Shown here piece after piece: positions 5,001 through 63,588 of a DNA stretch of 64,000 nt (its first letter is position 1; the number at the start of each line of letters is the position of its first letter). The translations under genes were made by a program, and so were the position numbers. The stretch is from Cenococcum geophilum (taxonomy: Eukaryota). The notes beneath the pieces were generated by a model. It was not told the origin of the DNA, did not search any database, and was given only the letters and a program-made list of their open reading frames with translations. The stretch lies in the NCBI GenBank assembly GCA_050273025.1, contig CP158635.1:16306001-16370000 (forward strand). The letters are read 5' to 3'.

Positions 5001-5353
5001 TACTATAAGGTTCCGTTATATAATCACTACTAGGTTATAGTATTAAATATAGAAAGTTAAATAATATGCCACTAAAAGCAGCTACCACGACGCTATTAAC
5101 GGCGGCAACTACTTTAAGGTTAGGAAACGACACTAGCATAGTAGACACTGACTTATAGCAACCTATAACGGTTAGACAGTTATAAGAGATAGTTAACCAG
5201 TTAACAGAAAATAATATAATATTAGAAAATAGGATTAACGGGATAGGAGTAGCAAAGATTAAGTTACTATTAATTAAGAGATTCTTAGGAGAAAGGTTAA
5301 AACTTAAGGGATTTCTTACGTAAATGCACTTTAAGGTTATATAAGAAGGGGTA

Positions 5354-29258: not shown

Positions 29259-29373
29259 GCTCCTTTTGAGTGTATGATAATTTACGAGTAGAGAACTAAC
29301 TTGTGGGTTATTGTGGGTTATTGAAGGAAAGATCAGTTGCAGAACTGAAAATGCGAGGAGGACTCAGCTCTTG

Positions 29374-29381: not shown

Positions 29382-30378
29382 CCCCGCCATTCCTCAATAA
29401 ATCCATCATCCTGGCTGTGTGAGAGTATGTCTAAGCACTAATTCGAAGAATTGGAGTCTAGTGGAAGACATATCTGCTGACATTCGACTCCACGATTCGA
29501 CGATTTCTCAATGGCTCGGGTGTAGCTCAAGCCACTTGCGGGGTCACGACAAAGCAAACCTCGCGAACGCAGTCGGTGGCTGCTAGCCAAGGCCCAGTAC
29601 CCATGCTGAAGCGTAAGAGTTACCTAGTATATTGATTGTATAGGACAGACACGCACCAGCGTGGTTTTCATTTTCAATATTGGCACTAATCAATATTAGC
29701 GAGTATTGGCGAGTACTGGATTTCCTCGGCTAACGCACGGTCTCACCTGACGCACGATTTTCCCGACCCCACTAAATCTATTTACAGTGGTGTTCACGGC
29801 TCGGCTGAGCGCCCGATCAGTCGCTGAGCCGCACGTGACGCATACAACCCCCGTCGACATTCGCGGGTATCGGAGGTCGGGGTTAGGCTTGGCATAACCT
29901 CGGGTTACGCACGACCCCCCAAGGTCCGCGACATATCGTCCAAATATCACCCCCCCCTTTTGGTGGTGGCCCCTACTTTTTAGACGCGTTTTTGAGGCCT
30001 AGGTTAGTACTAGGTTAGTATAGAGGACCTCGTCGCGCGCCTTCGACCTCATCGTCGCCTTAACAATCCATTTTTTAACCCTCTTCCTATTCTTATGCCC
30101 GCGCTAGCTCCTAGCTCGCGCGGGGCTTCTAGTTTTATATAAAACGGCCTACTATAATTCTAATTCTATAATATAGAGCTCTCTTCTTTTCCTCCTTTAT
30201 TAATATTTACGCGTTCGGTAGCTTTATTTACCTATACCCATACTATACTTACGCGTCTTCCCCCTAACCTCTTACGGAAATAAAGTCTTTTAAGAATCTT
30301 CTTACCCTATGGTCTACTTTATAGTCGAAAAAAGCCCCCCTAGCTTTCTCCTCCCCCTCTTCCTATAGCCTCTAGAAC

Positions 30379-32852
30379 GAATTTAAGGCCTAGATAGCAC
30401 GGCTATACAATATTTATAAGGCTTAGCGCTTAAAGAATACTATAAGGGCGTACAAGCCAAAGTAGAAAAAGTGGGAAGACTAGTGTATAAGATTAGAAGG
30501 CAATATAGACGGCGCCTAGGTAACAGAAGATAAGCTTTACCTATTTTTAAAGTAGTAAGTTATTAACTAAAAATTATAGGCTGCTAGCTATTAAAAACAG
30601 AAGTTAAAACAGAAAGAGATATAGAAAGATAGTAAGTGGGTAAAGAAGAGGTAGAAGACGGTTAAGCGGGTAAGGTAGCTAGAGGGGAAGTTAGCTATAG
30701 GGGCAGCCGTAGGGGTAGCTATAGGGGCAGCCATAGGCACAGGGGAGGAAGCTATAAAGGAGGAAGGGGAGATATAGGACGAGGAGGCCCTAGACGCCCT
30801 ATTTAATAAGATAGTCTAATACTTAGTTATAAATAGCTACGTCTCCGCTATTACCGAGCTTTATATATAGTAGTTAAAAGGTAAGACCTCGCAGCTACTA
30901 TAGGGGGCAAAGCTCTCAGTAGTACTAGATAGCGTCCGCTATAATAAGGACCGGATTTAACGCGTTAACTTTATTAATTAAGGCCTATTTATAATTACTA
31001 GCGGCTATAACGTTAAAGGGCTTAAAAAGGTAATTACTTAGTGCTAGGAGATAGGCTCTAAGATACTAGGTTTAGTTAAGTCTTACCTTTAAACTATAGC
31101 TAAGCATTTATTAGGTTTATATATACCCTACCTAGTCTATATAGCTACCGTTTTCTAACCTATTCCTTAGGCTATACTACTATTACCTATAGTAAAAGTA
31201 GATAAGACGTTTAGCTTGCTAACCTTATTTTTATTAAACTAGAGAATAAAGGGCCTAAACTAGATAAGTTAGCGCCGTGTATAATTATATTAATAATATA
31301 AGGGAAGCAGAATTAGTACGGTAAGGTTAAGTATATAGGCTATATACGGAACGCTAACCCTATCCTCTACCCCCTCTCTATAGTAACCTTTTACTTCTTT
31401 AACTACTAGGGTAAAGACGGCGCTAAGAGCTTCCTATCCTTTTAGTAGCTAAAGGACTACTATAACCTATACGTCTTCCCTAGCAGTATTAAAGTACCAT
31501 AATAGCCGCTAAGCTATTATATACAGTTTAAATAAAATAAAAAGATATTCTAGGGGGTAGGAATTTACTTAAAGAAGAAGACCTATAGCGCCTATAAGTA
31601 GAGCGTCTGGTATACTAAGCTTAGCGGCATTAAGGAGACCTAAATTAAATAGGCCGGACGCTGGAATATAGACGTGATAATAGGAGCCTACCTTAGCTAC
31701 CTACCCTATATATTTATACGGTTGATTACCGGCTTCCTAAAGAAAGGAAAGGGCTACTTTCTTCCCTACATATGGGAGGTGCTAAAGGAGGCCCTTTATT
31801 TAAAGATATGGCCTAAGACTAATGTCTAGCTAAAACGCATAGAGGCCTACTATCTAGGTAGGGCTAATAATAAGGTTATATAGCTTAACCTTATAGGCTT
31901 AGGATTTCTACGCCTCCTTCGTATACTTAGGGTAATCCTATTATAGGACTTAGTAATCCTACGTAAGTAGTTCCCGCTCTACCCCCTATAGAAGGACCCC
32001 CTCTTTAGCTATAAGGAGTACTAAAGGTTTGCTATATAGGTAAAAAGCTTACTAGCTAATATAGTTACGCTAGATAAGCTAATAATACGGAAATACTAGC
32101 CTACCTATAAGGCCGTAGCTAAGCTAAAATATAAGGCCGCGATCTCTAAAATAAAGGGGGTTTAATTATATATATAGACGATCTTAAAACGCCTTAGCAA
32201 AATAGAAAGGTTATTAGCATTATTCGCACCTATATAGATTTAGTAAGAGAAGATAGGTATCTAAATAGGGCCTATAGAGTCTGTATATCTACCTTTAGGC
32301 GAGCCTATACCATCTACTATAGCGTCTACTATATCCGCGCCGCCTACTCTGCTATCTATAATATCCATACTACCCGCTTAGCTGCTATCTATAATATCCA
32401 CACCGTCCGCTTAGCTATCTATAATATTCATACTATCTACTTAGCTGTCTATAATATCTATACCGCCTACTTAGCCGTCTACTATATCCGTATCACCCCT
32501 ATTAGCGTAGGTATAAGCTAATACTTAACTATCTCTCCTATTTATCCTTAACCTATAGGCGCCGCTAAGGAAATATAAAATGCTTTAAGGCGGTAATTTA
32601 GTCTTCTAGCTCTGGACTAAGTAGACTTTAGGGCTAGCGGATAGGCCGTTAATTAAAGCTCTTAATTGCTGCTAGGGGGTACGCTAGCGGGTTAACGGTA
32701 AGGCTATATTTTATAGCCGTCGCTATAAAATAATTAAGGATATAAGACGGCGTGTAGAAAACGGTACGGCAAGAGATAAGAGATAGGCTATTAACTAGCT
32801 AGAATAGCTATAAGGTCAGCGTTCTTTAGATTGGCTTTATAAGAATATTTAA
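30379..32852 (+). pseudogene. CryptonF-type tyrosine recombinase (Ndc10-like core + GCR1_C), RIP pseudogene; 5' start not resolved
   Basis: De-RIP reading: KNTIRAYEPKQKEW, VTEDKLCLFL, NEGP, GKQNQHGKVEY, CPLS, KKTHSARK (HxxR), RAGRWN..MTGAYL, C-terminal LWTEWTLG..GPSIEALD..WG..WR; probable intron ~31110-31170. Confidence 0.85.
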
Positions 32853-32862
32853 ATAGTTATTT

Positions 32863-33210
32863 TACTATAGTAACTAAGACGCCTTAATATATAACTGCAC
32901 TATAGTAACTAAGACGCCTCTATATATAATTATACTATAGTAACTAAGACGCCTTAATATATAACTATACTGTAGTAACTAAGATATCTTAATATAGGAC
33001 TATACTAGTAACCAAGACGTTTTAATATAGGACTATACTATAGTAACCGAGATGCCTTAATATATAACTATACTATAGTGACCAAAACGTCTTAATATAG
33101 GACTATACTATATTAACCGAGACGCCTTAATATAGGACTATACTATAGTAATTAAGACGTCTTAATATAGGACTATACTATAGTAATTAAAACGCCTTAA
33201 TGTAGGAATA
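32863..33210 (+). repeat. 35 bp minisatellite, ~10 units, 3' of the C1 gene
   Basis: Unit ~TACTATAGTAACTAAGACGCCTTAATATA(TA/GG)ACTA; one unit is 33 bp; no spacers. Confidence 0.92.
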
Positions 33211-33705
33211 GAGCCCATTTAGGTATTATAAATTTAGAGTAATATTATATAACCATCTAGAAGTACTAATCTAATATAAATTATATACCTTTTCGCCTAA
33301 AATCGCGTGCGAAAGTACTTGGGGGCGGTTACTACGCGACCTTATATAGGGTTCGGGCGCGTTATTAATAGGGGTAGCCCTAACCTCGTATTAACCCAGG
33401 TCGTAACCGCGCTAAATTAGCCCCCCCGATATGTGATAGATATCTACAGCCAAGCCTATAGCCAAGCCGTGGACATCTATCACATATTAGGGGGGCTGAT
33501 TTGGCACAGTTACGACCCGGGTTAATACGAGGTTAGGGCCATCCCTACTAATAACGCGCCTAAACCCCATATAAGGTCGCGTAGCAATCGCCCCTAAGTA
33601 CTTTTACACGCGATTTTAGGCGAAAAGGTATATAATTTATATTAGATCGGTACTTCTAGATGGTTATATAATATTACTCTAAATTTATAATACCTAAACG
33701 GGCTC

Positions 33706-34053
33706 TATTCCTACATTAAGGCGTCTTAGTTGCTATAGTATAGTCCTATATTAAGACGTCTTAATTACTATAGTATAGTCCTATATTAAGGCGTCTCGGT
33801 TAATATAGTATAGTCCTATATTAAGACGTTTCGGTTACTATAGTATAGTTATATATTAAGGCGTCTTAGTTACTATAGTATAGTCCTATATTAAAACGTC
33901 TTGGTTACTAATATAGTCCTATATTAAGATATCTTAGTTACTATAGTATAGTCGTATATTAAGGCGTCTTAGTTACTATAGTGTAATTATATATAGAGGC
34001 GTCTTAGTTACTATAGTGCAGTTATATATTAAGGCGTCTTAGTTACTATAGTA
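33706..34053 (-). repeat. 35 bp minisatellite, mirror copy in C1b
   Basis: Reverse complement of 32863-33210. Confidence 0.9.
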
Positions 34054-34063
34054 AAATAACTAT

Positions 34064-36537
34064 TTAGATATTCTTATAAAGCCAATCTAAAGAACGCCGA
34101 CCTTATAGCTATTCTAGCTAGTTAATAGCCTATCTCTTATCTCTTACCGTACCATCTTCTACACGCCGTCTTATATCCTTAATTATTTTACGGCGACGGC
34201 TATAGAATATAGCCTTACCGTTAACCCACTAGCGTACCCCCTAGTAGTAATTAAGAGCTTTAATTAACGGCCTATCCGCTAGCCCTAAAGTCTACTTAGT
34301 CTAGAGCTAGAAGACTAAATTACCGCCTTAAAGCATTTTATATTTCCTTAGCGGCGCCTATAGGTTAAGGATAAATAGGAGAGATAGTTAAGTATTAGCT
34401 TATACCTACGCTAATAGGGGCGATGCGGATATAGTAGATGGCTAAGTAGGCGGTATAGATATTATAGACGGCTAAGTAGATAGTATAAATATTATAGATA
34501 GCTAAGCGGACGGTGCGGATATTATAGATAGCGGCTAAGCAGGTAGTATGGATATTATAAATAGTAGAGTAGGTAGCGCGGATATAGTAGACGCTATAGT
34601 AGACGGTATAGGCTCGCCTAAAGGTAGATATACGGACTCTATAGGCCCTATTTAGATACCTATCTTCCCTTACTAAATCTATATAGGTGCGAATAATGCT
34701 AATAACCTTTCTATTTTGCTAAGGCGTTTTAAGATCGTCTATACGTATAATTAAACCCCCTTTATCTTAGAGATCGCGGCCTTATATCTTAGCTTAGCTA
34801 CGGCCTTATAGGTAGGCTAGTATTTCCGTATTATTAGCTTATTTAGCGTAACTATATTAGCTAGTAAGCTTTTTACCTATATGGTAAACCTTTAGTACTC
34901 CTTATAGCTAAAGAGGGGGTCCTTCTATAGGGGGTAGAGTGGGAACTACTTATATAGGATTACTAAGTCCTATAATAGGATTACCCTAAGTATATAAAGG
35001 AGGCGTAGAAATTCTAAGCCTATAAGGTTAAGCTATATAACCTTATTATCAGCCCTACCTAAATAGTAGGCCTCTATACGTTTTAGCTAGACGTTAGTCT
35101 TAGGCTATATCTTTAAATAGAGGGCCTCCTCTAGCACCTCCTATGCGTAGAGAAGAAAGTAGCCCTTTTCTTTCTTTAAGAAGCCGGTAATCGACCGTAT
35201 AAATACATAGGGTAGGTAGCTAAGGTAGGCTCCTATTATCGCGTCCGTATTCCAGCGTTCGGCCTATTTAATTTAGGTCTCCTTAACGCCGCTAAGCTTA
35301 GTATACCAGACGCTCTACTTATAGGCGCTATAGGTCTTCTTCTTTAAGTAAATTCCTACCCCCTAGAATATCTTTTTATTTTATTTAAACTGCGTATAAT
35401 AGCTTAGCGGCCGTTGCGGTATTTTAATACTGCTAGGGAAGACGTATAGGTTATAGTAGTCCTTTAGCTACTAAAAGGATAGGAAGCTCTTAGCGCCGTC
35501 TTTACCCTAGTAGTTAAAGAAGTAAAAGGTTACTATAGAGAGGGGGTAGAGGATAGGGTTAGCGTTCCGTATATAGCCTATATACTTAACCTTACCGTAC
35601 TAATTCTGCTTCCCTTATATTATTAATATAATTATACACAGCGCTAACTTGTTTGGTTTAGGCCCTTTATTCTCTAGTTTAATAAAAATAAGGTTAGTAA
35701 GCTAAACGTCTTATCTACTTTTACTATAGGTAATAGTAGTATAGCCTAAGGAACGGGTTAGAAAACGGTAGCTGTATAGACTAGGTAGGGTATATATAAA
35801 CCTAATAAATACTTAGCTATAGTTTAAAGGTAAGACTTAACTAAACCTAGTATCTTAGAGCCCATCTCCTAGCACTAAGTAATTACCTTTTTAAGCCCTT
35901 TAACGTTGTAGCCGCTAGTAATTATAAATAGGCCTTAATTAATAAAGTTAACGCGTTAAATCCGGTCCTTATTATAGCGGACACTATCTAGTACTGCCGA
36001 GAGCTTCGCCCCCTATAGTAGCTGTAAGGTTTTACCTTCTAACTACTATATATAAAGCTCGGTAATAGCGGAGACGTAGCTATTTATAACTAAGTATTAG
36101 ACTATCTTGTTAAATAGGGCGTCTAGGGCCTCTTTATCCCATATCTCCCCTTCCTCCTTTATAGCTTCCTTCCCTATGCCTACGGCTGCCCCTACGGCTG
36201 CCCCTACGGCTGCCCCTATAGCTAACTTCCCCTCTAGCTGCCCTACCCGCTTAACTATCTTCTACCTCTTCTTTACCTACTTACTATCTTTCTATATCTC
36301 TTTCTGTTTTAACTTCCATTTTTAATAGCTAGCAGTCTATAATTCTTAGTTAATAACTTACTGCTTTAAAAATAGGTAAAGCTTATCTTCTATTACCTAG
36401 GCGCCGTCTATATTGCCTTTTAGTCTCGCGCACTAGTCTTCCTACTTTTTCTACTTTAGCTTATACGCCCTTGTGGTATTCTTTAAGCGCTAAGCCTTAT
36501 AAATATTGTATAGCCGTGCTATTTAGGCCTTAAATTT
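34064..36537 (-). pseudogene. CryptonF-type tyrosine recombinase, C1 copy b, RIP pseudogene
   Basis: Mirror of 30379-32852. Confidence 0.85.
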
Positions 36538-37292
36538 GTTCTAGAGGCTATAGGAAGAGGGGGAGGAGGAAGCTAGGGGGGCTTTTTTTGACTATAAAGT
36601 AGACCATAGGGTAAGAAGATTCTTAAAAGACTCCATCTCTGTAAGAGGTTAGGGGGAAGACGCGTAAGTATAGTATAGGTATAGGTAAATAAAGCTACCA
36701 AACACGTAAATATTAATAGAGGAGGAGAAGAAGAGAGCTCTATATTATAGAATTAGAATTATAATAGGCCGTTTTATATAAAACTAAAAGCCCCGTATAA
36801 GCTAGGAGCTAGCGCGGGTATAAGAATAGGAAGAGGGTCAAAAAATAGATTGTCGAGGCGACGATGAGGTCAAAGGCGCGCGACGAGGTCCTCTATACTA
36901 ACCTAGTACTAACCTAGGCCTTAAAAACGCGTCCAAAAAGTAGGGGCCACCACTAAAAGGGGGGGGTGATATTTGGACGATATGTCGCGGACCTTAGGGG
37001 GTTGTGCGTAACCCGAGGTTATGCCAAGCCTAACCCCGACCTCCAATACCTTTAAATGTCTTTACCCCCGCTAATCGAGTCGCTAATGCGCGCGTACTAT
37101 TGGCCTATTGGGCCAGCTATGCGCCTATGTATTTACCCTATGCGGTAAGGTCACTTATCCACGTCGCTGAGCGGTTAGTAGGTAGGGTAGGTATACTTTC
37201 TCTACCTCTCCTCCCCGGTCTATATCTGCGTATATATAAAAAATAGGAACCCCCCTAGGGCGCCGCTTCTCCAGCAGCGTCCTATCTTAAAA

Positions 37293-39534
37293 ATGGCGTT
37301 AATTAGTCGCGTAGAGATTAACGTCGCGAATAATGCCAAACTACGCGCTAACGCGTAGAGCATTCTCGCCCTTACGCGTGCCGAGAGGCCTAAAAACACG
37401 TCTCTAAATTATAAGCCGAAGTAGAAGGAGTTTAAGGTAGGTAGCTAGGTGCTTTACGGAGTAGTATACTTATAGCTAACGCGCGTCTTTCTAGGCCTTT
37501 TATAAGAAGAAGCAGTACTATAATAATAATACCGTTATAGAAGAAAAGCTACTCCTTTTCCTTATTAAGGAGGTTATAGGCCGGCCACTAAAAGTAAAAA
37601 GCCGTAAGGCCAGTAATAATATACCCTAGGATGAGACGCGGCTCTTCTAGCGCTTAGTTCGCGGCTATATTATGGCCCTAACGGACTTTTATTAGGCGTA
37701 GAAGGCTATAGGGATAAATAGCCACTAGTTCCTATAGGAGGATAATATTTAGGAGTACCTAAAGATTCTATAACGGAGGGACGCGTAGTAGGAAAAGGAC
37801 TAGTTCGCGGATAAGGGTAGAGATATATTGCTTAACGGATATACGGAGGACGAGTTTAAGAACGTCTGCCGCTAGCTATAGGCCCGCGGAGACTCCTTGC
37901 CGGAATGCTACCTCCGCATGCTTATAGATATCCTACTAGGCTACTATATGCTTACCCGCGGTGGCGACAGGCGCTCTACTAAGATCTTAGACCTATTTAC
38001 CTTTAAGTTTAAGGGCGAAGGCCCTATGCGCTATATGCCCCTAATATTTACTATACGCGCTAGTAAGTAGAACTAGTATAGCCGCCTTAAAACTATTAGG
38101 GCTCTATATAATATAAAGCCGCTTATCTATATACTTAGTGGGCTAGCTTTTTACCTCTTATACCGCTAGGACCTTAGCAATAAGCTATTCCTAGACTTTA
38201 GTAAGCGGTTAGCGTGGTATAATATCCGCCTAATTAAGAGTAGTGCTAGGGACTGTAAGGCGGCCTTCTTATATAACTTATAGCGGGAGTAGGTTGCTAA
38301 GGCGTTTTAGTACGTTAGCGTCTTCTTATAGAAGAAGACCTATATTAGACGAAGCGCTAGCGCTAAGACAGTAGAGCTAAAAGGGGTTAGTAAGGACCAG
38401 ATTAGACGCGCTAGTAGGTAAAACTAGGAGCAAATGGTTGGCTACTACTTAAACTCGCTACTATAGGAGTTTATGCGGACGATAGCTGGCTATACGCCGT
38501 AGATAGGCTGCTTTGAAATTTATAGGGCAAGCGTCGCCCCCCCTAACGTACTACTATTAATAATCTAGCCAGAGCTAAATATCTAAAAGGGTTAGTTTAG
38601 CCCTTAGGTTGGCTAGATTAATAACCTTATAGCTATAGGCGCTATAAACCTCCTATTCTACCTTTAGGAGGTTATCTTATAGGACTTAGTAGTCCTCCGC
38701 AAAATGTTCTTAAGTAGCCCTATATAGAACCACCCGGTTTTTTAGTATAAGGCCTATCTACCCTTTACGCAGAAGGTTAAAGCCTACCTATAGTAAAAGG
38801 AAGAAGGCCCTAGCTAGCTATTAATACTCTACTAAGCCGTACTAGCTATTATGGACTGCCTAAAGACTATAGACGCCTAGAATAACTAGAGAGTATATAA
38901 GAATAATAAGAGAGTATATAAGCTGTAGGCGTTATTTAACCATATAGCTAAGTCCTAGTAGGCGCAGTCTTTGCAGCTTTAATTGCTTATGTCTAGTAGC
39001 CTTACCTTTTGGCTTAAGGTCCCTTTAGTACGTCTACTAATAGCACGTTTACTAGCGCCTCTATCTATCGCGGGATTAAGCTAGTATGCGTTAGCCCGGG
39101 CGAGCGCTATAGCTTCCCCTTTACCGGCGCCGCCGCAGCTATAGTTATAGCTGTAACTATAGCTGTAGTAAGGGCCTAAGTCTAAGCTTAAGCTTAAGCT
39201 CTAGCCTAAGCAGCCGCCCGTGTATTATATATACCATATAGTAAAGTCTATATAGGCCCTTTGGCGCAAGTAGACTAAGGGGCTTAGAGGTAATCCTTTT
39301 ATAGTAGCGCTAGATTCTAAATAGAGTAGTAAATAGCGGGCTAGCCGGCAGAATAAGCTCTAATAGTATTCCCTACGGCTTAAGGTTATTAAGGAGATTA
39401 AGCGGGTTATATAGGCCTAGAGGGTTAGTAAGGAAGCGGCTATATAGTAGGTTAATCTATAGTAGGAGTAGATGCAGTGCTTATTAGATTAGCTTTGTAA
39501 ACGGCTTTAAGTAAGTAGAAAAGCTTTTAAATAG
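37293..39534 (+). pseudogene. CryptonF-type tyrosine recombinase + GCR1_C (C2 unit 1), one intron 37437-37494, RIP pseudogene
   Basis: ATG at 37293; GTAGGT...GCTAAC...CTAG intron; de-RIP motifs RPKNT, VTEEKLLLFL, DKGRDTLLDGY, HYMLTRGGDRR, EGPTRC, GKQNQHGR, KKTHIGR, RRAGRWN..M.GCYL, LWREWTEGL.GNPS..ALD.KWG.KWR. Confidence 0.88.
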
Positions 39535-40268
39535 TATATATCTTTAAAATACTAAGGGGTCTTCTATTAAGTCTTCTATTAAAACCTTTATTTATAGCCC
39601 CCTAGGGGCTTATTTTAGTGCGGTATAAGTTTAGTAGGGTACTTATATAATAGCGGTGCCTAACTTAAAATATAAATATCTTTATTAACCTACGGCCAAT
39701 TCTTACCATTCTAGTGCGAGTAGAGAGCTCTTGGCCGGCTCTACGCATAGCGCTTAATAGGTATTAAGAGTGCGGCGTTGCTGGTGATTATAGATCGACT
39801 ATAGATATGGGGTAATATCCATATGCCGCTAAGCGCATGGGCCTCTTCGCTTGCAAAATCTAACTTAGTGGCTAATTTAGCTATATAAATCGAACTATAG
39901 ATATACTATTGGTATTTACGGCTTAGCTAAGCGCCTAATTAGTTGCTAAGCCGTATATAACGCATATAACCCCCATTAATATTCGCGGATATTTACAGCC
40001 GAGCCTATAGCTAAGCCGTAGACATCTTTAAATATCTTTACCCCCGCTAATCGAGTTACTAATACGCGCGTACTATTGGCCTATTAGGCCAGCTATGCGC
40101 CTATATATTTACCCTATGCGGTAAGGTTACTTATCTATATCGCTAAGCGGTTAGTAGGTAGGGTAGGTATGCTTTCTCTACCTCTCCTCCCTGGTCTATA
40201 TCTGCGTATATATAAAAAATAGGAACCCCCTTAGGGCGCCGCTTCTCTAGCAGCGTCCTATCTTAAAA

Positions 40269-42510
40269 ATGGCGTTAATTAGTCGCGTAGAGATTAATAT
40301 CGCGAATAATACCGAACTACGCGCTAACGCGTAGAGTATTCTCGCCCTTATATATGCCAAGAGGCCTAAAAATATGTCTCTAAATTATAAGCCGAAGTAG
40401 AAGGAGTTTAAGGTAGGTAGCTAGGTGCTTTATAAAGTAGTATACTTATAACTAACGCGCGTCTTTCTAGGCCTTTTATAAGAAGAAGTAGTACTATAAT
40501 AGTAATACTGTTATAGAAGAAAAGCTACTCCTTTTCCTCATTAAGGAGGTTATAGGCCGGCCACTAAAAGCAAAAAGCTATAAGGCTAGTGATAATGTAC
40601 TTTAGGACAAGACGCGGCTCTCCTAGCGCTTAGTTTATAGTTATATTACGGCCCTAATAGACCTCTACTAGGCGTAGAAGGCTATAGGGATAAATAGCCA
40701 CTAGTTCCTATGGGAGGATAATATTTAGGAGTACCTAAAGATTCTATAACAGAGGGATGTGTAGTGGGAAAAGGACTAGTTTATAGATAAGGGTAGAGAT
40801 ATACTACTTAACGGATATATAGAGGACGAGTTTAAGAACGTCTACCGCCAGCTATGGGCCCACGGAGACTCCTTGCCGGAATGCTACCTCCGCACGCTTG
40901 TAGATATCCTACTAGGCCACTATATACTTACCCACGGCGGCAACAGGCGCTCCGCTAAGATCTTAGACCTATTTACCTTTAAGTTTAAGGGTAAAGGCCC
41001 TACGCGCTATATGCCCCTAATATTTACTATATACGCTAGTAAGCAGAACTAGTATAGCCGCCTTAAGACTATTAGGGCTCTATATAATAAGAAGCCACTT
41101 ATCTATATACTTAGCGGGCTAGCTTTTTACCTCTTATACCACTAGGACCTTAGTAACGAGCTATTCCTAGACTTTAGTAAGCGGTTAGTGTGGTATAATA
41201 TCCGCCTAATTAAGAGCAGTACTAGGGACTATAAGGCGGCCTTCTTATATAACTCGCAGCAGGAGTAGGTTGCTAAGGTGTTTTAGTATATTAGCGTCTT
41301 CTTATAGAAGAAGACCTATATTGGATAAAGCGCTAGCGCTAAGATAGTAGAGCTAAAAGGGGTTAGTAAGGACTAGATTAGACGCGCTAGTAGGTAGAAC
41401 TAGGAGCAGATGGTTAGTTGCTACTTAAACTTGCTACTATAGGAGTTTATACGGACGATGGCCGGCTATATACCGTAGATAGGCTGCTTTGAGATTTGTA
41501 GGGCAAGCGTTACCCCCCCTAACGTACTACTATTGACAATCTAGCCAGAGCTAGATGTCTAGAAGGGTTGGTTTAGCCCTTAGGTCGGCCAGATTAACGA
41601 TCTTATAGCTATAGGCGCTATAAACCTCCTATTCTACCTTTAGGAGGTTATTCTATAGGACTTAATAGTCCTTTGCGAAATATTCCTAAGCAGCCCTATA
41701 TAGAACCACCTAGTCTTCTAGTATAAGGCCTATCTACCCTTTACGCGGAAGGTTAAAGCCTGCCTATAGTAGGAGGAAGAAGGCCCTAGCTAGCTATTAA
41801 TACTTTACTAGGCCGTGCTGGCTATTGTGGACTGCCTAAAGACTATAAACGCCTGGAATAACTAGAGAGTATATAAGAATAATAAGAGAGTATATAAGCT
41901 ATAGGCGTCGTTTAACCGTATAGCTGAGTCCTAGTGGGCGCAGTCTTTACAGCTTTAATTGCTTATGTCTAGTAGCCTTACCTTTTAGCTTAAGGTCCCT
42001 TTAGTATATCTATTAACGGCACGTCTACCGGCGCCTCTATCTATCGCGGGATTAAGCTAGTATGCGTTGGCCTAGGTAAGCGCTATAGCTTTCCCTTTAC
42101 CGGCGCCGCCGCAGCTATAGCTATAGCTATAACTATAGCCGTAGTAAGGGCCTAAGTCTAAGCTCGAGCTTAAGCTCCAGCTTAAGTAGCCGCCTGTGTA
42201 TTGTATGTGCTATATAGTAAAGTTTATACGGGCCCTTTAGCGCGAGTGGACTAAGGGGCTTAGAGGTAATCCTTCTGTAATAGCGCTAGATTCTAAATAG
42301 GGCAGTAAATAGCGGGCTGGCCGGTAGAATAAGCTTTAATAGTATTCCCTATAGCTTAAGGTTATTAAGGAGATTAAGCGGGTTGTATAGGCCTAGAGGG
42401 TTAGTAAGAAAGCGGCTATATAGTAGGTTAATTTATAGTAGGAGTAGATATAGTGCTTACTAGATTAGCTTTATAAATGGCTTTAAGCAGGTAAAAAAGC
42501 TTTTAAATAG
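40269..42510 (+). pseudogene. Crypton C2 recombinase, unit 2
   Basis: Colinear with unit 1 at offset +2976. Confidence 0.88.
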
Positions 42511-43244
42511 TATATATCTCTAAAATACTAAGGGGTCTTCTATTAAGTCTTCTATTAAAACCTTTATCTATAGCCCCCTAGGGGCTTATTTTGGTACGGT
42601 ATAAGTTTAATAGGGTACTTATACAATAGTAGTGCCTAACTTAAAATATAAATATCTTTATTAACCCACGGCCAATTCTTATTATTCTAGTGCGAGTAGA
42701 GAGCTCTTGGCCGGCTCTACGCATAGCGCTTAATAGGTATTAAGAGCGCGGCGTCGCTAGTGATTATAGATCGACCGTAGATATAGGGTAATATCTATAT
42801 GCCGCTAAGCGCACAGGCCTCTTCGCCTGTAAAATCTAACTTAGCGGCTGATTTAGCTATATAAATTAAACCGTAGATATACTATTAGTATTTATGGCTT
42901 AGCTAAGCGCCCGATTAGTCGCTAAGCCGTATATAACGCATATAACCCCCGTTAATATTCGCGGATATCTATAGCTAAGCCTGCAGCCAAGCCGTGGACA
43001 TCTTTAAATGTCTTTACCCCCGCTGATTAAGTCGCTAATACGCGCGTACTATTGGCCTATTGGGCTAGCTATGCGCCTATATATTTACCCTATGCGGTAA
43101 GGTTACTTATCCGCGTTACTGAGCGGTTAGTAGGTAGGGTAGGTATGCTTTCTTTACCTCTTTTCCCTGGTTTATATCTGCGTATATATAAAAAATAGGA
43201 ACCCCCCTAGGGCGCTGCTTTTCTAGCAGCGTCCTATTTTAAAA

Positions 43245-45486
43245 ATGGCGTTAATTAGTTGTGTAGAGATTAACGTCGCGAATAATGCTAAACTACGCGC
43301 TAACGCGTAGAGTATTCTTGCCCTTATATGTGCTAAGAGGCCTAAAAATATGTCTCTAAATTATAAGCCAAAGTAGAAGGAGTTTAAGGTAGGTAGCTAG
43401 GTGCTTTATAGAGTAGTATACTTATAGCTAACGCGCGTCTTTCTAGGCCTTTTGTAAGAAGAAGTAGTACTATAATAGTAATACCGTTACGGAAGAAAAG
43501 CTACTCCTTTTCTTTATTAAGGAGGTTATAGGTTAGCCACTAAAAGCAAAAAGCTATAAGGCTAGTGATGACGTACCCTAAGACGAGACGCGGCTCTCCT
43601 AGCGCTTAGTTCGCGGCTATATTACGGCCCTAATGGACCTTTACTGGGCGTAGAAGGCTATAGGGATAAATAGCCACTAGTTCCTACGGGAGGATAACGT
43701 TTAGGAGTATCTAAAGATTCTATAATAGAGGGACGCGTAGTAGGAAAAGGACTAGTTTGCGGATAAGGGTAGAGATATACTGCTTAACGGATATATAAAG
43801 GACGAGTTTAAGAACGTCTGCCGCTAGCTATGGGCCCGCGGAGACTCCTCGCCGGAATACTACCTTCGCATGCTTATGGATATCCTACTAAGCCACTATA
43901 TACTTACCCGCGGCGGTAACAGGCACTCCGCTAAGATCTTAGACCTATTTACCTTTAAGTTTAAGGGCGAAGGCCCTACGCGCTATATGCCCCTAATATT
44001 TACTATATGCGCCGGCAAGTAGAACCAGTATAGCCGCCTTAAGACTATTAGGGCTTTATGTAATAAGAAGCTACTTATTTATATACTTAGCGGGCTAGCT
44101 TTCTACCTCTTATACCGCTAGGACCTTAGCGACGAGCTATTCCTAGACTTTAGTAAGCGGTTAGTATAGTATAATATCCGCCTAATTAAGAGCAGTGCTA
44201 GGGACTATAAGGCGGCCTTCTTATATAACTCGCAGCGGGAGTAGGTTGCTAAGGCGTTTTAGTATATTGGCGTCTTCTTATAGAAGAAGACCTATATTAA
44301 ATAAAGCGCTAGCGCTAAGATAGTAGAGCTAAAAGGGGTTAGTAAGGACTAGATTAGATACGCTAGTAGGTAGAACTAGGAGTAGATAGTTAGCTGCTAC
44401 TTAAACTCGCTATTATAGGAGTTTATGCGGACGATGGCTGGCTATACGCCGTAGATGGGCTGCTTTGAGATTTGTAGGGTAAGCGTTGCCCCCCCTAACG
44501 TACTACTATTGACGATCTGGCTAGAGCTAGACGTCTAAAAGGGTTGGTTTAGCCCTTAGGTTGGCTAGATTAATAACCTTATAGCTATAGGCGCCACGAA
44601 CCTTCTATTCTATCTTTAGAAGGTTATTTTATAGGACTTAGTAGTCCTCTGCGAAATGTTTCTAAGTAGCCCTATATAGAACTACCCGGTCTTTTAGTAT
44701 AAGGCCTATCTACCCTTTACGCGGAAGGTTAAAGCCTGCCTATAGTAGGAGGAAGAAGGCCCTAGCTAGCTATTAATACTCTACTAGGCCGTGCCGGCTA
44801 TTGCGGACTGCCTAAAGACTATAGACGCCTAGAATAACTAGAGAGTACGTAAGAACAATAAGAGAGTATATAAGCTATAGGCGTTGTTTAACTATATAGC
44901 CGAGTCCTAGTGGGCGCAGTCTTTGTAGCTTTAATTGCTTATATCTAGTAGCCTTACCTTTTAGCTTAAGGTCCCTTTGGTATATTTACTAACAGTACAT
45001 CTACCGGCGCTTCTATCTATTGCGGGATTAAGCTAGTATACGTTGGCCCGGGCGAGCGCTATAGCTTCCCCTTCGCCGGCGCCGCCGCAGCTATAGCTAT
45101 AGCCGCAACTATAGCCGCAGTAAGGGCCCGAGTCTAAGCTTAAGCTTAAGCTCTAGCCTAAGCAGCCGCCCGTGTATTGTATATACCGCGCAGTAAAGTC
45201 TATACGGGCCCTTTAGCGTAAGTAAACTAAGGGGCTTAGAGGTAATTCTTTTATAGTAGCGCTAGATTTTAAATAGGGTAGTAAATGGCGGGCCGGCTGG
45301 CAGAACGAGCTTTAATGGTATTCCCTACGGCTTAAGGTTATTAAGGAGATTAAGCGGGTTGTGTAGGCCTAGAGGGTTAGCGAGGAAGCGGCTATATAGT
45401 AGGTTAATCTATAGCAGGAGTAGATATAGTGCTTACTAGATTAGCTTTATAAACGGCTTTAAGTAGGTAGAAAAGCTTTTAAATAG
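43245..45486 (+). pseudogene. Crypton C2 recombinase, unit 3
   Basis: Colinear with unit 1 at offset +5952. Confidence 0.88.
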
Positions 45487-46220
45487 TATATATCTCTAAA
45501 ATACTAAGGGGTCTTCTATTAAGTCTTCTATTAAAACCTTTATCTATAGCCCCCTAGGGGCTTATTTTAGTGCGGTATAAGTTTAGTAGGGTACTTATAT
45601 AATGGCGGTACCCAACTTAAAATATAAATATCTTCATTAACCTACGGCTAATTCTTACTATTTTAGTGCGAGCAGAGAGCTCTTGGCTGGCTCTACGTAT
45701 AGCGCTTAACAGGTGTTAAGAGCGCGGCGTCGCTAGTAATTGTAGATTGACTATAGATATGGGGTAATATCTATATGCCGCTGAGCGTATAGGCCTCTTT
45801 GCCTGCAAAATCTAACTTAGCGGCTGATTTAGCTATATAAATCGAACCATGGATATACTATTGGTATTTACGGCTTAGCTAAGCGCCCAATTAGTTACTA
45901 AGCCGTATATAATGTATATAACCCCCGTTAATATTTATAGATATCTACGGCTAAGCCTACAGCCAAGCCGTGGACATCTTTAAATGTCTTTACCCCTGCT
46001 AATTAAGTCGCTAATACGCGCGTACTATTGGCCTATTGGGCCAGCTATGCGCCTATATATTTACCCTATGCGGTAAGGTTACTTATCCGCGTCGCTGAGC
46101 GGTTAGTAGGTAGGGTAGGTATACTTTCTCTACCTCTCCTCCCTAGTCTATATCTGCGTATATATAAAAAATAGGAACCCCCCTAGGGCGCCGCTTCTCT
46201 AGCAGCGTCCTATCTTAAAA

Positions 46221-48462
46221 ATAGCGTTAATTAGTCGTGTAGAGATTAACGTCGCGAATAATGCTAAACTACGCGCTAACGCGTAGAGTATTCTCGCCCT
46301 TACGCGTACTAAGAGGCCTAAAAATATGTCTCTAAATTATAAGCCGAAGTAAAAGGAGTTTAAGGTAGGTAGCTAGGTGCTTTATAGAGTAGTATACTTA
46401 TAGCTAACGCGCGTCTTTTTAGGCCTTTTATAAGAAGAAGCAGTACTATAATAGTGATACCGTTATAGAAGAAAAGCTACTCCTTTTCCTTATTAAGGAG
46501 GTTATAGGCTGGCTATTAAAAGTAAAAAGCTATAAGGTTAGTAACGATATACCTTAAAACGAGACACGGCTCTCCTAACGCTTAGTTCGCGGCTATATTA
46601 TAGCCCTAATAGACCTCTACTAGGCGTAGAAGGCTATAGGGATAAACAGCCACTAGTTCCTATAGGAGGATAATATTTAGGAGTACCTAAAGATTCTATA
46701 ACGGAGGGACGCGCAGTAGGAAAAGGACTAGTTCGCGGATAAGGGTAGAGATATACTGCTTAACGGATATATAGAGGACGAGTTTAAGAACGTCTGCCGC
46801 TAGCTATAGGCCTGTAGAGACTCCTTGCCGGAATACTACCTCCGTACGCTTATAGATATCCTACTAGGCTACTATATACTTACCCGCGGCGGCGACAGGC
46901 GCTCCGCTGAGATCTTAGACCTATTTACCTTTAAGTTTAAGGGCGAAGGCCCTACGCGCTATATGCCCCTAATATTTACTATACGCGCCGGTAAGTAGAA
47001 CTAGTATAGCCGCCTTAAGACTATTGGGGCTCTATGTAATAAGAAGCCGCTTATTTATATGCTTAGCGGGCTAGCTTTCTACCTCTTATACCGCTAGGAC
47101 TTTAATAACGAGCTATTCCTAGACTTTAGTAAGCGGTTAGTGTAGTATAATATCCGCCTAATTAAGAGCAGTGCTGGGGACTGTAAGGCGGCCTTCTTAT
47201 ATAACTTGTAGCGGGAGTAGGTTACTAAGGCGTTTTAGTATATCGGCGTCTTCTTATAGAAGAAGACCTATATTAGACAAAGCGCTGGCGCTAAGATAGT
47301 AGAGCTAAAAGGGGTTAGCGAGAACTAGATTAGACGCGCTAGTAGGTGGAACTAAGAGTAGATGGTTAGCTGCTACTTAAACTTACTACTACGGGAGTTT
47401 ATACGGATAATGGCCGGCTATACGCCGTAGATAGGCTGCTTTAAGATTTATAGGGCAAGTGTTGCCCCCCCTAACGTACTACTATTGATAATCTAGCCAG
47501 AGCTAGATGTCTAAAAGGGTTGGTTTAGCCCTTAGGTTAGCTAGATTAACGACCTTATAGCTATAGGCGCCATAAACCTCCTATTCTACCTTTAGGAGGT
47601 TATCCTATAGGACTTAGTAGTCCTCCGCGAAATATTCCCAAGTAGCCCTATATAAAACTACTTAGTCTTTTAGTATAAGGCCTATCTACCCTTTACGCGG
47701 AAGGTTAAAGCCTACCTATAGTAGGAGGAAGAAGGCCCTAGCTAGCTATTAATACTCTATTAGGCCGTGCTGGCTATTATAGACTGCCTAAAGACTATAG
47801 ACGCCTGGAATAACTAGAGAGTATATAAGAATAATAAGAAAGTATATAAGCTATAGGCGTTATTTAACTGTATAGCTAAGTCCTAGTGGGCGCAGTCTTC
47901 GTAGCTTTAATTGCTTATATCTAGTAGCCTTACCTTTTAGCTTAAGGTCCCTTTGGCACGTTTACTAACAGTATATCTACTAGCGCCTCTATCTATCGCG
48001 GGATTAAGCTAGTATACGTCGGCCTGGGCGAGCGCTGTAGCTTCCCCTTTACCGGCGCCGCCGCAGCTATAGCCGCAGCCGTAACTATAGCTATAGTAAG
48101 GGCCCGAGTCTAAGCTTAAGCTTAAGCTTTAGCCTAAGTAGCCGCCTATATATTATATATGCCGCGCAGTAAAGTCCGTATAGGCCCTTTAGCGTAAGTA
48201 GACTAAGGGGCTTAGAGGTAATCCTTTTATAGTAGCGCTAGATTCTAAATAGGGTAGTAAATAGCGGGCTAGCTGGTAGAACAAGCTCTAATAGTATTCC
48301 CTATGGCTTAAGATTATTAAGGAGATTAAGCGGGTCGCGTAGGCCTAGAGGGTTAGTAAGGAAGCGGCTATATAGCAGGTTAATCTATAGTAGGAGTAGA
48401 TATAGTACTTACTAGATTAGCTTTATAAACGGCTTTAAGCGGGTAAAAAAGCTTTTAAATAG
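46221..48462 (+). pseudogene. Crypton C2 recombinase, unit 4
   Basis: Colinear with unit 1 at offset +8928; ATG mutated to ATA. Confidence 0.88.
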
Positions 48463-49196
48463 TATATATCTCTAAAATACTAAGGGGTCTTCTATTAAGT
48501 CTTCTATTAAAACCTTTATCTATAGCCCCCTAGGGGCTTATTTTAGTGCGGTATAAGTTTAGTGGGGTATTTATATAATGGCGGTGCCTAACTTAAAATA
48601 TAAATATCTTTATTAACCTACGGCCAATTTTTACCATTCTAGTGCGAGTAGAGAGCTCTTGGCCGGCTCTACGCATAGCGCTTAATAGGTATTAAGAGCG
48701 CGGCGTCGCTGGTAATTGTAGATTAACTGTAGATATAGGGTAATATCTATATACCGCTAAGCGCACGGGCCTCTTCGCCTGCAAAATCTGACTTAGCGGC
48801 TAATTTAGCTATATAAATTAAACCATGGACATACTATTAGTGTTTACGGCTTAGCTAAGCGCCTAATTAGTTGCTGAGCCGCATATAACGTATATAACCC
48901 CTATTAATATTCGCGGATGTTTATAGCTGAGCCTGTAGCTAAGCCGTGGATATCTTTAAATATCTTTACCCCTGCTAATTAAGTCGCTAATACGCGCGTA
49001 CTATTGGCCTATTAGGCCAGCTATGCGCCTATATATTTACCCTATGCAGTAAGGTCACTTATTCACGTCGCTAAGCGGTTAGTAGGTAGGGTAGGTATGC
49101 TTTCTCTACCTCTCCTCCCTAGTCTATGTCTGCGTATATATAAAAAATAGGAACCCCCCTAAGGCGCCGCTTCTTTAGCAGCGTCCTATCTTAAAA

Positions 49197-51422
49197 ATGG
49201 CGTTAATTAGTCGCGTAGAGATTAATATTATAAATAATACCGAACTACGCGCTAACGCGTAGAGTATTCTCGCCCTTACGTATGCTAAGAGGCCTAAAAA
49301 TACATTTTTAAATTATAAGCCAAAGTAGAAGGAGTTTAAGGTAGGTAGCTAAGTGCTTTACAGAGTAGTATACTTATAGCTAACGCGTGTCTTTCTAGGC
49401 CTTTTATAAGAAGAAGTAGTACTATAATAGTAATACCGTTACGGAAGAAAAGCTACTTCTTTTCCTTATTAAGGAGGTTATAGGCTGGCCACTAAAAGCA
49501 AAAAGCCGTAAGGCTAATAATAATGTACCCTAGGACAAGACGCGGCTCTCCTGGCGCTTAGTTTGCGGCTATATTACGGCCCTAATAGACCTTTACTAGG
49601 CGTAGAAGGCTATAGGGATAAATAGCCACTAGTTTCTATGGGAGGATAATATTTAGAAGTACCTAAAGATTCTATAACGGAGGGACGCGTAGTAGGAAAA
49701 GGACTAGTTCGCGGATAAGGGTAGAGATATACTACTTAATGGATATATAGAGGATAAGTTTAAGAATATCTGCCGCCAGCTATGGGCCCGCGGAGACTCC
49801 TCGCCAGAATGCTACCTCCGCACGCTTGTGGATATCCTACTAGGCCACTATATGCTTACTTATAGTGGCGATAGGCGCTCTGCTAAGATCTTAGACCTAT
49901 TTACCTTTAAGTTTAAGGGCGAAGGCCCTACGCGCTATATGCCCCTAATATTTACTATACATACTAGTAAGTAGAACTAGTATAGCCGCCTTAAGACTAT
50001 TAGGGCTCTATATAATAAGAAGCCGCTTATCTATATACTTAGCGGGCTAGCTTTTTACCTCTTATACTATTAGGACCTTAGCAACAAGCTATTCCTAAAC
50101 TTTAGTAAGCGGTTAGCGTAGTATAATATCCGCCTAATTAAGAGTAGTGCTGGGGACTATAAGGCGGCTTTCTTATATAACTTGTAGCGGGAGTAGGTTG
50201 CTAAGGCGTTTTCTTATAGAAGAAGACCTATATTAGATAAAGCGCTGGCGCTAAGATAGTAGAGCTAAAAGGGGTTAGCGAGGACTAGATTAGATACGCT
50301 AGTAGGTAAAACTAGGAGTAGATGGTTAGCTATTACTTAAACTCGCTACTACGGGAGTTTATACGGACGATAGCTGGCCATATACTGTAAATAGGCTGCT
50401 TTAAGATTTATAGGGCAAGCGTTGCCCCCCCTAATGTACTACTATTAACGATCTAGCTAGAGCTAGATATTTAAAAGGGTTAGTTTAGCCCTTAGGTTGG
50501 CTAGATTAATAACCTTATAGCTATAGGCGCTACGAACCTCCTATTCTACCTTTAGGAGGTTATCTTATAGGACTTAGTAGTCCTTCGCGAAATGTTTCTA
50601 AGCAGCCCTATATAGAACTACCTAGTCTTCTAGTATAAGGCCTATCTACCCTTTACGCGGAAGGTTAAAGCCTACCTATAGTAGGAGGAAGAAGGCCCTA
50701 GCTAGCTATTAATACTTTACTAGGCCGTACTAGCTATTACGGACTGCCTAAAGACTATAGACGCCTGGAATAACTAGAGAGTATATAAGAATAATAAGAG
50801 AGCATATAAGCTGTAGGCGTTATTTAACCGTATAGCCGAGTCCTAGTAGGCGCAGTCTTTATAGCTTTAATTGCTTACGTTTAATAGCCTTACCTTTTAG
50901 CTTAAGGTCCCTTTGGCACGTTTACTAACGGCACGTCTATTAGCGCCTCTATTTATCACAGGATTAAGCTAGTATATATTGGCCCGGGTAAGCGCTATAG
51001 CTTCCCCTTTACCGGCACCGCCGTAGCTATAGCTGTAGCTGTAACTATAGCTGTAGTAAGGGCCTAAGTCTGAGCTTGAGCTTAAGCTTTAGCCTAAGCA
51101 GCCGCCCGTGTATTATATATGCCGCGCAGTAAAGTCTATATAGGCCCTTTAGCGTAAGTAGACTAAGGGGCTTAGAGGTAATCCTTTTATAGTAGCGCTA
51201 GATTCTAAATAGGGCAGTAAATAGCGGGCTAGCCGGTAGAATGAGCTCTAATAGTATTCCCTACGGCTTAAGGTTATTAAGAAGATTAAGTGGGTTGCGT
51301 AGGCCTAGAGGGTTAGTAAGGAAGCGGCTATATAGTAGGTTAATCTATAGTAGGAGTAGATATAGTACTTACTAGATTAGCTTTATAAACGGCTTTAAGC
51401 GGGTAGAAAAGCTTTTAAATAG
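49197..51422 (+). pseudogene. Crypton C2 recombinase, unit 5 (16 bp deletion at ~50210)
   Basis: Colinear with the other units apart from the deletion. Confidence 0.88.
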
Positions 51423-52380
51423 TATATATCTCTAAAATATTAAGGGGTCTTCTATTAAGTCTTCTATTAAAACCTTTATCTATAGCCCCTTAGGGGCTTA
51501 TTTTAGTGCGGTATAAGTTTAGTAGGGTACTTATATAATAGCGGTGCTTAACTTAAAATATAAATATTTTTATTAACCTATAGCTAATTCTTACCATTCT
51601 AGTGCAAGTAGAGAGCTCTTAGCTGGCTCTACGTATAGCGCTTAATAGGTGTTAAGGGCGCGGCGTTGCTAGTAATCGTAGATCAACTGTGGATATAGGG
51701 TAATATCTACATACCGCTAAGCGTATGGGCCTCTTCGCCTGCAAAATCTAACTTAGCGGCTGATTTAGCTATATAAATTAAACCGTGGACATACTATTGA
51801 TATCCCCTCCTTAGCGAGTTACAGATTCGCTACGCGTATCCAATTTCGCCTGGTTGCCACCAGCTGTATATAGTAATTATAGTGAACGGCTGTGGCTGCA
51901 CGTAAGGTCCTTTTTGGTTACCCTGGAGAATCGCCTTGGTTGGCCAGGAGAATTAAATTAAAGACGACGCTTCCTTTTCTCTCCTTTAACTATGCCTCCA
52001 TTATGCCCGCCAAAACGCGAATACAACGCTGTCTCTGCAGAGGGGTTGACAAAGTTTAGCAATATCGTACAGGTGGAAGCCTCACGATATTTGACAAAGA
52101 TCACAACACTGCGGAGGAAGGCCGCCAGAAGTAATGTTCTTGCAGCCAAGTACAGCCTGTACGACCTCCAGTGTCCCCCCCCCCTATATACGCGCAGCAC
52201 ACACACCTAATTTCGCTACGTCTGCAGCTAAATTAGTATGTAGAGCTAGCAGGAAGGGGTGTAGTACATGGCCAGGGCTTAAGCCACGGCCTATAGCTCG
52301 GATTTGAAGCTGTTCTCTCTTACCAAAAGTTATAATATTGCCTTTAGATCCTAATGTTTTACCCTATTCCCTTCTTTAAT

Positions 52381-63217: not shown

Positions 63218-63588
63218 ATTAATGAGAGAAAGAAGCTTTATAATACTACGACCTGGAACAGATATCACGACTTTTGGCGAGGGAGAGGAGTTTAGAATAG
63301 CTTTAAAATCGAGCTTAGAGCTCCGAATTCGAGGTGGGCCTTAGCTTAAGCCCCGGCCATGTACTACACCCCTTCCTGCTAGCTCTACATACTAATTTAG
63401 CTGCAGACGTAGCGAAATTAGGTGTGTGTGCTGCGCGCACACAGGGGGGGGGAGGTCGTACAGGCTGTATACGGCTTCGCTACAATTACTATGTACAGCT
63501 GGTGGCAACCAGGCGAAATTGGATGCGCGTAGCGAATCTGCAACTCGCTAAGGAGGGGGGGGTGAAGCTGGTCGTGCACATCACTGTA

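Follow-up and report, generated by a model that had tools for sequence, protein, structure and literature searches.

The window analysed here, 64,000 nt of the Cenococcum geophilum contig CP158635.1, contains on its forward strand (29790..51799) a tandem array of five head-to-tail units of a CryptonF-type transposon. We call this element C2; its period is 2,976 bp. Two copies of a second Crypton, named C1, are nested in the first unit. We consider it likely, with a probability of roughly 0.7, that the array was made by the recombinase of the element acting on the element's own ends, and that this happened before the copies were inactivated by repeat-induced point mutation (RIP). This view rests on sequence comparison within the window and with relatives from metagenomes.

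The five-unit head-to-tail array had been claimed in the initial annotation and was confirmed in several ways. In a repeat search of the window, the start-to-start spacings of the C2 units are 2976, 2976, 2976 and 2976 nt. A lag scan of the window with 7 lags showed similarity at lag 2976 alone, and with unit 2 as query the Basic Local Alignment Search Tool (BLAST) retrieved 5 copies with 90.4-91.1% identity. Tandem Repeats Finder, with a longest period of 500, is blind to such an array. All units are in forward orientation. Unit 1 is split into its positions 1-77 (29790..29866), 78-114 (33440..33476) and 115-2976 (37050..39911), while units 2, 3, 4 and 5 occupy 39912..42887, 42888..45863, 45864..48839 and 48840..51799. 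A deletion of 16 bp after 50210 has shortened unit 5 to 2,960 bp. With 3,573 bp for each copy of C1, the length sum closes (22,010 = 5 x 2976 - 16 + 2 x 3573). The initial annotation described five units of 2,976 bp without host DNA between them. This holds for the joints, which contain no foreign base, but not for unit 1, which is split by the two C1 copies, nor for unit 5, which is 16 bp short.

The joints are located after 39911, 42887, 45863 and 48839, and in each case the tail of one unit is directly followed by the head of the next, without any extra base. Joint 1/2 (39891..39925, forward strand) consists of a left arm (39891-39904), the spacer ACTATTG (39905-39911) and a right arm (39912-39925), and this layout recurs at +2976, +5952 and +8928. 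For RIP correction, columns with C and T were taken as C and columns with A and G as G. The corrected joint reads CGAACCGTGGACAT ACTATTG GTGTTCACGGCTCG, with arms of 14 nt that are complementary at 11 of 14 positions and a spacer of 7 nt. The consensus proposed earlier for the joint was thus recovered, and it is little mutated in the relatives described below. As had also been stated, the outer ends of the array are the two halves of the joint: the head GTGTTCACGGCTCG begins at 29790 and the tail ...CCGTGGACATACTATTG finishes at 51799.

Metagenome contigs were scanned with a profile of 24 homologs, which resulted in 80 loci. Four of these contain a solitary full-length C2-like copy with 79-86% DNA identity (L001, L011, L018, L019), and single C2-like ends were also found at L022, L049, L013 and L042. 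The initial annotation had made its interpretation depend on the termini of solitary copies; these, and the single ends as well, stop at the same bases as the ends of the array. As solitary relatives end there, the joint is what would be expected for the junction of a circle. All seven left ends start with GTGTT(C/G)ACGG, and the 10 right ends, including that of the array, have the tail GGACATACTATT(G) or a near variant (the end at L073 aligns ambiguously). The nine joints known from the C2 family (four in the window, three in L030 and one each in L013 and L025) all connect tail and head without indel.

The C2-like tandems in L030, L013 and L025 have a period of 2957. Two units are present in L013 and in L025, while L030 has two full units between two partial ones, the full units differing by 299 transitions and 1 transversion. 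The fourth unit of L030 breaks off at about unit position 1782 into unrelated DNA (8872/8873). A C1-like tandem with a period of 3497 and one tandem joint was found in L049. This locus also has a C2-like copy, which is interrupted at unit position 1645-1651 by about 5.4 kb (10959-16403). A search for Crypton tandem junctions elsewhere, as proposed in the initial annotation, therefore revealed arrays in 4 of the 29 metagenome loci of at least 4 kb, and the contigs do not overlap at an identity of at least 97%.

The joint of C1 could be deduced from the L049 joint together with the C1 ends in the window. It reads CCCCCGATAT GTGATAG GTATCGGAGG, with arms of 10 nt (CCCCCGATAT / GTATCGGAGG, 8 of 10 matching), a spacer of 7 nt and the crossover at the 3' edge of the spacer. 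The earlier proposal of an attP-like joint is strengthened by this shared geometry in a second Crypton family and by the shared termini of solitary C2 relatives. We take the C2 joint to be the putative circle-junction (attP-type) site of the element, with inverted arms of 10-14 nt (CCGTGGACAT / GTGTTCACGG) around ACTATTG, and strand exchange would occur at the 3' edge of the spacer, TTG^GTGTT. It is at this edge that the sequence switches from flank to element, and target and element spacers share just 2-4 nt. The crossover is thus placed at the spacer edge and not within an overlap shared with the target, a point absent from the initial annotation, as are the nested elements in unit 1 and the further copies of the arm motif.

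Chance does not explain the inverted repeat of the arms. A RIP-tolerant 12-mer derived from it occurs 30 times in the window, compared to 7.4 +/- 2.65 times in 100 shuffles, none of which reaches 30, and 26 of the 30 occurrences lie within the array or the centre piece. Each unit has five arm copies, all of which cluster in a stretch of about 230 bp at the joint. In the relatives, which are less mutated, the junction is surrounded by four sites that share one layout, with two arms separated by 6 or 7 nt. One of these is the joint itself. The others are found at position 67 (CCGTCGACAT TCGCGG ATGTCCACGG), at position 110 (CCGTGGACAT CTTCGA ATGTCTTTAC) and at about position 2867 (CCGTGGACAT GGGGTA ATGTCCACATG), and these three have a spacer of 6 nt where the joint has 7 nt. 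From shuffles, a mean of 0.05-0.14 such sites is expected per element, compared to the four that are seen. The sites at positions 67 and 110 contain two copies of the motif, M1 (+) and M2 (-), which form a palindrome. In L018 (9314-9400) and L049 (9317-9400), TTGACGG replaces T(C/T)CACGG in the head arm as well as in the M1 arm; that two motif copies changed alike would be compatible with a single protein that recognizes the two, or with gene conversion. The C2-like copy in L016 (9360-9470) lacks the M1-M2 palindrome (about unit positions 78-115), which suggests that the palindrome may be unstable or excisable.

C2 is a CryptonF-type DNA transposon with one gene, for a predicted tyrosine recombinase with a C-terminal GCR1_C DNA-binding domain. 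One forward frame of the unit, with stops read as X, matches the Pfam families NDC10_II (4.4e-47) and GCR1_C (6.7e-7; 29.9 bits compared to a cut-off of 23). In unit 2, this frame extends over about 40597-42507, with NDC10_II at about 40681-41733 and GCR1_C at about 42217-42429. In a Pfam search of all six frames these are the only families, the other five frames having nothing above threshold. C2 has no reverse transcriptase, long terminal repeats (LTRs) or long terminal inverted repeats (TIRs); its ends have no more in common than the inverted arm (11/14), which is displaced by the spacer of 7 nt. An NDC10_II-type recombinase combined with GCR1_C is the CryptonF architecture, and CryptonF elements occur in fungi and oomycetes according to the available text of PMC3212892.

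A homolog search resulted in 108 proteins of 553-830 aa with an E-value of at most 1e-3, the top one being 64% identical to the mutated query. In precomputed Pfam assignments, all 108 have NDC10_II and 102 have GCR1_C too. Named sources are Chaetomium (50% protein identity), Purpureocillium, Corynascus, Zopfia, Hirsutella and others. The window frame is colinear with the homologs over about 640 residues and has 69-76 stops per unit. Its departures from conserved columns are all of RIP type, an example being H>Y, which is found in each of the five units and in the two C1 copies. Even the RIP-corrected consensus of the five units has no frame of more than 121 codons, because many sites are mutated in all units. 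The relatives conserve DRR, K, KTH-x-G-R, RW and CYLN, with 26 residues from H to W and 9 from W to Y. Among the 108 homologs, Y276 is invariant, and R117, R118, K149, H241, R244 and W267 are conserved in at least 90%; their catalytic roles are presumably those of the Cre residues (Cre numbering) with the same spacing of 26 and 9 residues. A structure model computed from the 108 sequences has a predicted local distance difference test score (pLDDT) of 79; an earlier model from 24 close sequences (pLDDT 53.5) was discarded. The top matches of the later model are Ndc10 (E 1e-8 to 6e-5) followed by Flp (probability 0.96-0.97), and after Ndc10 nearly every match is a tyrosine recombinase, among them a staphylococcal integrase, Cre, Xer, XerH and lambda Int. 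A sequence search of PDB retrieved Ndc10/CBF3A only. The assignment as a Crypton is thus borne out by both Pfam families in one frame, by the 108 homologs and by a predicted fold that resembles first Ndc10 and then the recombinases.

All five C2 units have been destroyed by RIP. In their alignment, 2,409 columns are invariant and 567 vary, and among those that vary 564 are pure C/T or A/G. The rate of C>T is 0.59 before A, 0.31 before G and 0.04-0.06 before C or T. This pattern is that of RIP and marks the host as a fungus. Pairwise identities between units are flat (0.903-0.917); shared mutations are not nested, and all sharing patterns are similarly frequent. From the flat identities and this star-like mutation pattern it follows that all five units were present when RIP started. 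Amplification before RIP, which had been postulated previously, is thus supported.

The two C1 insertions are part of the same history. C2 unit 1 contains a near-perfect palindrome of 7.2 kb with arms that are 95% complementary. Each arm encodes its own protein with NDC10_II (4.3e-20) and GCR1_C (1.7e-3; a score of 19 bits, which is below the Pfam cut-off), which is about 29% identical to the C2 protein, and the palindrome thus represents two inverted copies of a second Crypton. The left copy is at 29867..33439 (forward; head GTATCGGAGG, tail ...GTGATAG) and the right copy at 33477..37049 (reverse), each of 3,573 bp. They differ by 184 transitions, with 0 transversions and 0 indels. The 37 nt in the centre of the palindrome (33440-33476), which carry M1 and M2, are exactly the C2 positions 78-114 that are absent elsewhere in this unit. 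The three parts of unit 1 sum up to 77 + 37 + 2862 = 2976, so no base has been lost or gained at either C1 insertion. A fold-back duplication or a hairpin-primed inverted dimer was considered as origin of the 7.2-kb palindrome, and was rejected in view of the central 37 nt of C2 and the base-perfect insertions. Both insertions are at G^ATGTC(C/T)ACGG in the position-67 and position-110 sites (motif copies M1 and M2). The copies are inverted because both insertions keep one orientation relative to the motif, which is present in the two arms of the C2 palindrome.

The 77-nt head fragment of unit 1, which carries the arm GTGTTCACGG, is free of RIP changes. Relative to it, units 2, 3, 4 and 5 have 19, 16, 24 and 18 changes, every one of them G>A or C>T. 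RIP needs a minimum repeat length, and a fragment of 77 nt would be too short. The unmutated head fits a fragment too short for repeat recognition, and C1 was therefore inserted before RIP. Each C1 copy also has about 9.9 tandem copies of a 35-bp repeat downstream of the gene (32863-33207, 33709-34053) and, likewise downstream, 30/63-bp repeats (32307-32489, 34428-34585). The C1-like array of L049 is not visibly within a C2-like palindrome.

Flanking sequences define the targets. Left flanks end with AGTG, AGTG, GTTG, GGTG, AGTA, ATTG and ATTG, where the element tail is ATTG. Right flanks start with ATATC, ATATG, ATATA, GGGTG, ATATT, ATGTT, ATGTA, ATCTT and CTAAC (the last one from L066), where the element head is GTGTT; the ambiguously aligned L073 end is left out of this list. 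From flanks and element ends, the crossover for C2 is therefore KTG^RTR. The corresponding terminal repeat of C1 at the crossover is TAG^RTR.

The right flank of the array (51800..52311, forward) is a repeat, which we call T, with about 19 nt beside the crossover missing here. The same repeat borders the C2-like copies of L019, L042 and L013 on their right side, and a further occurrence in the window is at 63319-64000. There, an unoccupied T-type target, TACAGTG^ATGTGCACGAC, is found on the reverse strand (63571..63588), representing a paralogous empty site. The last 7 nt of the left flank of the array (29783..29789, forward) are likewise TACAGTG, as before the crossover in a T-type target. 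Empty T sites could be identified in the window (63571-63588), in L042 and in L019, and occupied ones, which read ...ACTATTG^ATGTATACGAC..., in L019, L042 and the window. Their comparison shows no target duplication. The bases right of the crossover in T resemble the arm of the element itself. T has a palindromic centre (GTCGTGCACAT ... ATGTGCACGAC) and is a recurrent landing site of C2-like Cryptons; it may be a non-autonomous element or belong to another transposon. Neither the 80 loci nor the rest of the window contain a homolog of the left flank of the array.

The array might be questioned as an artefact of assembly, where a repeat was mis-collapsed or over-expanded so that the real locus has fewer or more units. 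Parts of the stretch are contained in 20 public sequencing runs, four of which were compared as Logan unitigs of about 60-250 nt, and in these run data no read spans a joint. The unitigs that are listed as 'joints' have sides of 20-28 nt within repeats and say nothing for or against the copy number. However, the units differ at about 9% of their sites with unit-specific transitions, each carrying its own mutation pattern. In addition, unit-specific unitigs with 0 differences were found in runs from several studies under two organism labels. In run X1, their depths of 97-112 resemble those of flank unitigs (95-125), which gives weak support that each C2 unit occurs once, contig depth being only a rough guide. 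The unit-specific mutation patterns and the unit-specific unitigs in other studies thus argue against a simple artefact, and we consider one very improbable. In all four runs compared, the summed unitig depth over C1 (33668-36335) is about 10x that over C2. This hints that C1-family sequence is much commoner than C2 in those samples, although contig depths are not copy numbers.

How could the recombinase have built the array? We propose that it prefers targets in which an arm-like half-site follows the crossover on its right (G^ATRTC...). The head of a resident copy would then be the best such target in the genome, as it offers a perfect right arm and TG^GTGTT, so that the next copy would join exactly at the end of the first. 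This second copy may land as a circle, or may come from the sister chromatid by attL x attR exchange. The joint of the resulting dimer would be a full junction site in the chromosome and would capture more copies. C1 may follow the same logic across families, by conservative insertion into both arms of the C2 palindrome prior to RIP. The element may move through an excised circle, the observed footprint being the tandem joints made of tail and head.

The initial annotation had proposed serial integration of circles or integration of a concatemer. Both are consistent with the data, but they are not discriminated, and recombinase-mediated exchange between sister chromatids fits equally: the sequence outcome is identical whether copies were captured serially, exchanged between sisters or integrated together as a multimeric circle. 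Integration of a pentameric or larger circle in one step, with rolling-circle replication or junction x junction recombination of monomer circles as the source of the circle, would give the same exact joints and outer ends, and a star-like RIP pattern without staged amplification fits a single event. There is also a hint of a replicative step, as an active CryptonF gains copies despite clean excision (available text of PMC9977147). Nevertheless, C2 encodes no replication function (the six frames yield only the two Pfam domains), solitary copies coexist with arrays of varied size among its relatives, and no sequence feature separates a single event from serial ones. On balance, we regard one-step integration as unlikely.

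Alternatively, the recombinase, or a double insertion into a hot spot, may have made a dimer at most, which then grew to five units through slippage during replication or unequal exchange between sister chromatids. The period would stay exact under homologous exchange as well, given identical repeats of 3 kb, and dimers from double insertion of transposable elements are known as seeds of arrays (available text of bioRxiv 10.1101/158386). However, arrays occur in two Crypton families (C2-like with period 2957, C1-like with period 3497), while other repeats in the window have not formed any. Moreover, fungi with RIP tend to delete tandem duplications before meiosis rather than to expand them. 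Such a host amplification thus seems quite improbable.

Several points weigh against array formation by the recombinase of the element. Unequal exchange by the host after formation of the first dimer yields the same sequence. All C2 copies in the window are dead. In the unitigs of the four runs, neither a circle nor a read or contig across a joint was encountered, none of the unitigs having 31 nt on both sides. The arrays of relatives all come from two related metagenome data sets and may represent one organism or lineage, possibly one near to that of the window. The left flank resembles T for only about 11 nt, while the T of the right flank lacks about 19 nt, so at least one further rearrangement has touched the edges of the array. 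Finally, target spacers are not identical to that of the element (3/7 for the left flank of the window), while classical tyrosine recombinases require strict identity of the overlap.

A wider generalization is possible, but we put it forward only tentatively and with more doubt than confidence. This Crypton lineage might multiply by self-targeting, with its 10-nt arm, present in at least 7 copies per element in the four arm-spacer-arm sites, guiding the recombinase to resident or related Cryptons and with arrays as a regular product. If so, self-targeting would act replicatively, through capture of circles or through attL x attR exchange with the sister chromatid, and would explain how cut-and-paste Cryptons gain copies. 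Tandem arrays, which collapse in short-read assemblies, would be normal in Crypton biology, and with the sites described here a eukaryotic Crypton would have a complete attP/attB pair for the first time.

The surroundings of the array are AT-rich and repeat-rich, with a GC content of 0.27-0.44 in the window except for one island of 0.51 at 28-30 kb. This island, left of the array, contains the sole open frame of at least 120 codons near it (28380-29363, reverse, 327 aa), which has no Pfam match. An inverted repeat pair of 4.9 kb with 85% identity (13345-18208 and 57981-53155) is mutated by RIP, as are the repeats at 4592-5349 and 61108-60351. At 51801-54800 (reverse) there is a match to a Tf2-type integrase SH3 domain (1.5e-5), which is below the Pfam cut-off. 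The RIP-mutated repeats around the array are probably remains of LTR retrotransposons.

Among eukaryotic DNA transposons, Cryptons stand alone in that their movement is attributed entirely to a tyrosine recombinase; it is difficult to define where they end, and the mechanism has not advanced beyond a model (available texts of PMC3212892, PMC13465315 and PMC8969392). From the locus and its relatives, complete junction sites of two families are available, together with targets that are naturally occupied or empty and two base-perfect nested insertions. The relatives also supply intact recombinase sequences, and this set suffices for a direct binding and recombination assay. That Crypton-type elements are able to build exact arrays bears on their gain in copies and on transposons as seeds of satellite-like repeats.

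C1 and C2 are ordinary members of CryptonF in having one gene for a tyrosine recombinase with GCR1_C, a size of about 3-3.6 kb and no LTRs or long TIRs. The published CryptonF table, as far as PMC3212892 was available, gives copy numbers of 2-30 and lists many termini as 'n.d.'. Three features are apparently unpublished: an exact array of several units, a junction region with more than one site, and nested insertions of one family in the other. Crypton tandem arrays are not mentioned in the full-text literature covered, including the available parts of PMC3212892, PMC13465315, PMC9977147, PMC8969392 and PMC4522978; Goodwin et al. 2003 and most supplements are outside this coverage, so a prior description is possible. 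Among the known elements, CryptonF-2_CGlo from Chaetomium globosum (3,618 bp; available text of PMC3212892, Additional file 1) has the terminal repeat TTGRTA, which resembles the short direct repeat across the crossover in C2 (KTG^RTR) and C1 (TAG^RTR). As far as PMC3212892 was available, the elements described here differ from published CryptonF elements by exact arrays, a full site of inverted arms and 7-nt spacer with three further sites nearby, and site-specific nesting across families. According to the available text of PMC9977147, CryptonF-1_cRei, which is active in Chlamydomonas reinhardtii, has the terminus CACCG and the target CAYCG, excises cleanly, rises in copy number and undergoes recombinase-type rearrangements between element ends and target-like sites. 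C2 resembles it in a terminus that is near-identical to the target and in precise insertion. Unlike C2, CryptonF-1_cRei has another motif, and in the text of PMC9977147 without its supplements no tandem insertion is described.

Similarities extend to Flp/FRT of the yeast 2-micron plasmid and to Cre/loxP, which follow Ndc10 among the fold matches of the predicted structure (1m6x, 1flo, 5crx and others). Like FRT and loxP, the C2 site has inverted arms, of about 13 nt in those systems, around a spacer of 6-8 nt, and the spacing of H-x-x-R, W and Y is that of Cre. C2 also resembles FRT in carrying an extra arm copy beside its core. Unlike Flp and Cre, C2 is a chromosomal transposon with a GCR1_C domain, and its targets need a half-site-like arm and identity of 2-4 nt in the spacer. 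In CTX phage and integrative and conjugative elements (ICEs), tyrosine recombinases build head-to-tail arrays at the element's own att-derived site, with joints that are attP, and SGI1 reportedly forms tandem multimers. The C2 array differs from these bacterial integrative elements by residing in a eukaryotic nuclear genome, by the absence of conjugation or phage functions and by having been frozen by RIP. It shares with them the head-to-tail order and joints that are attP-like.

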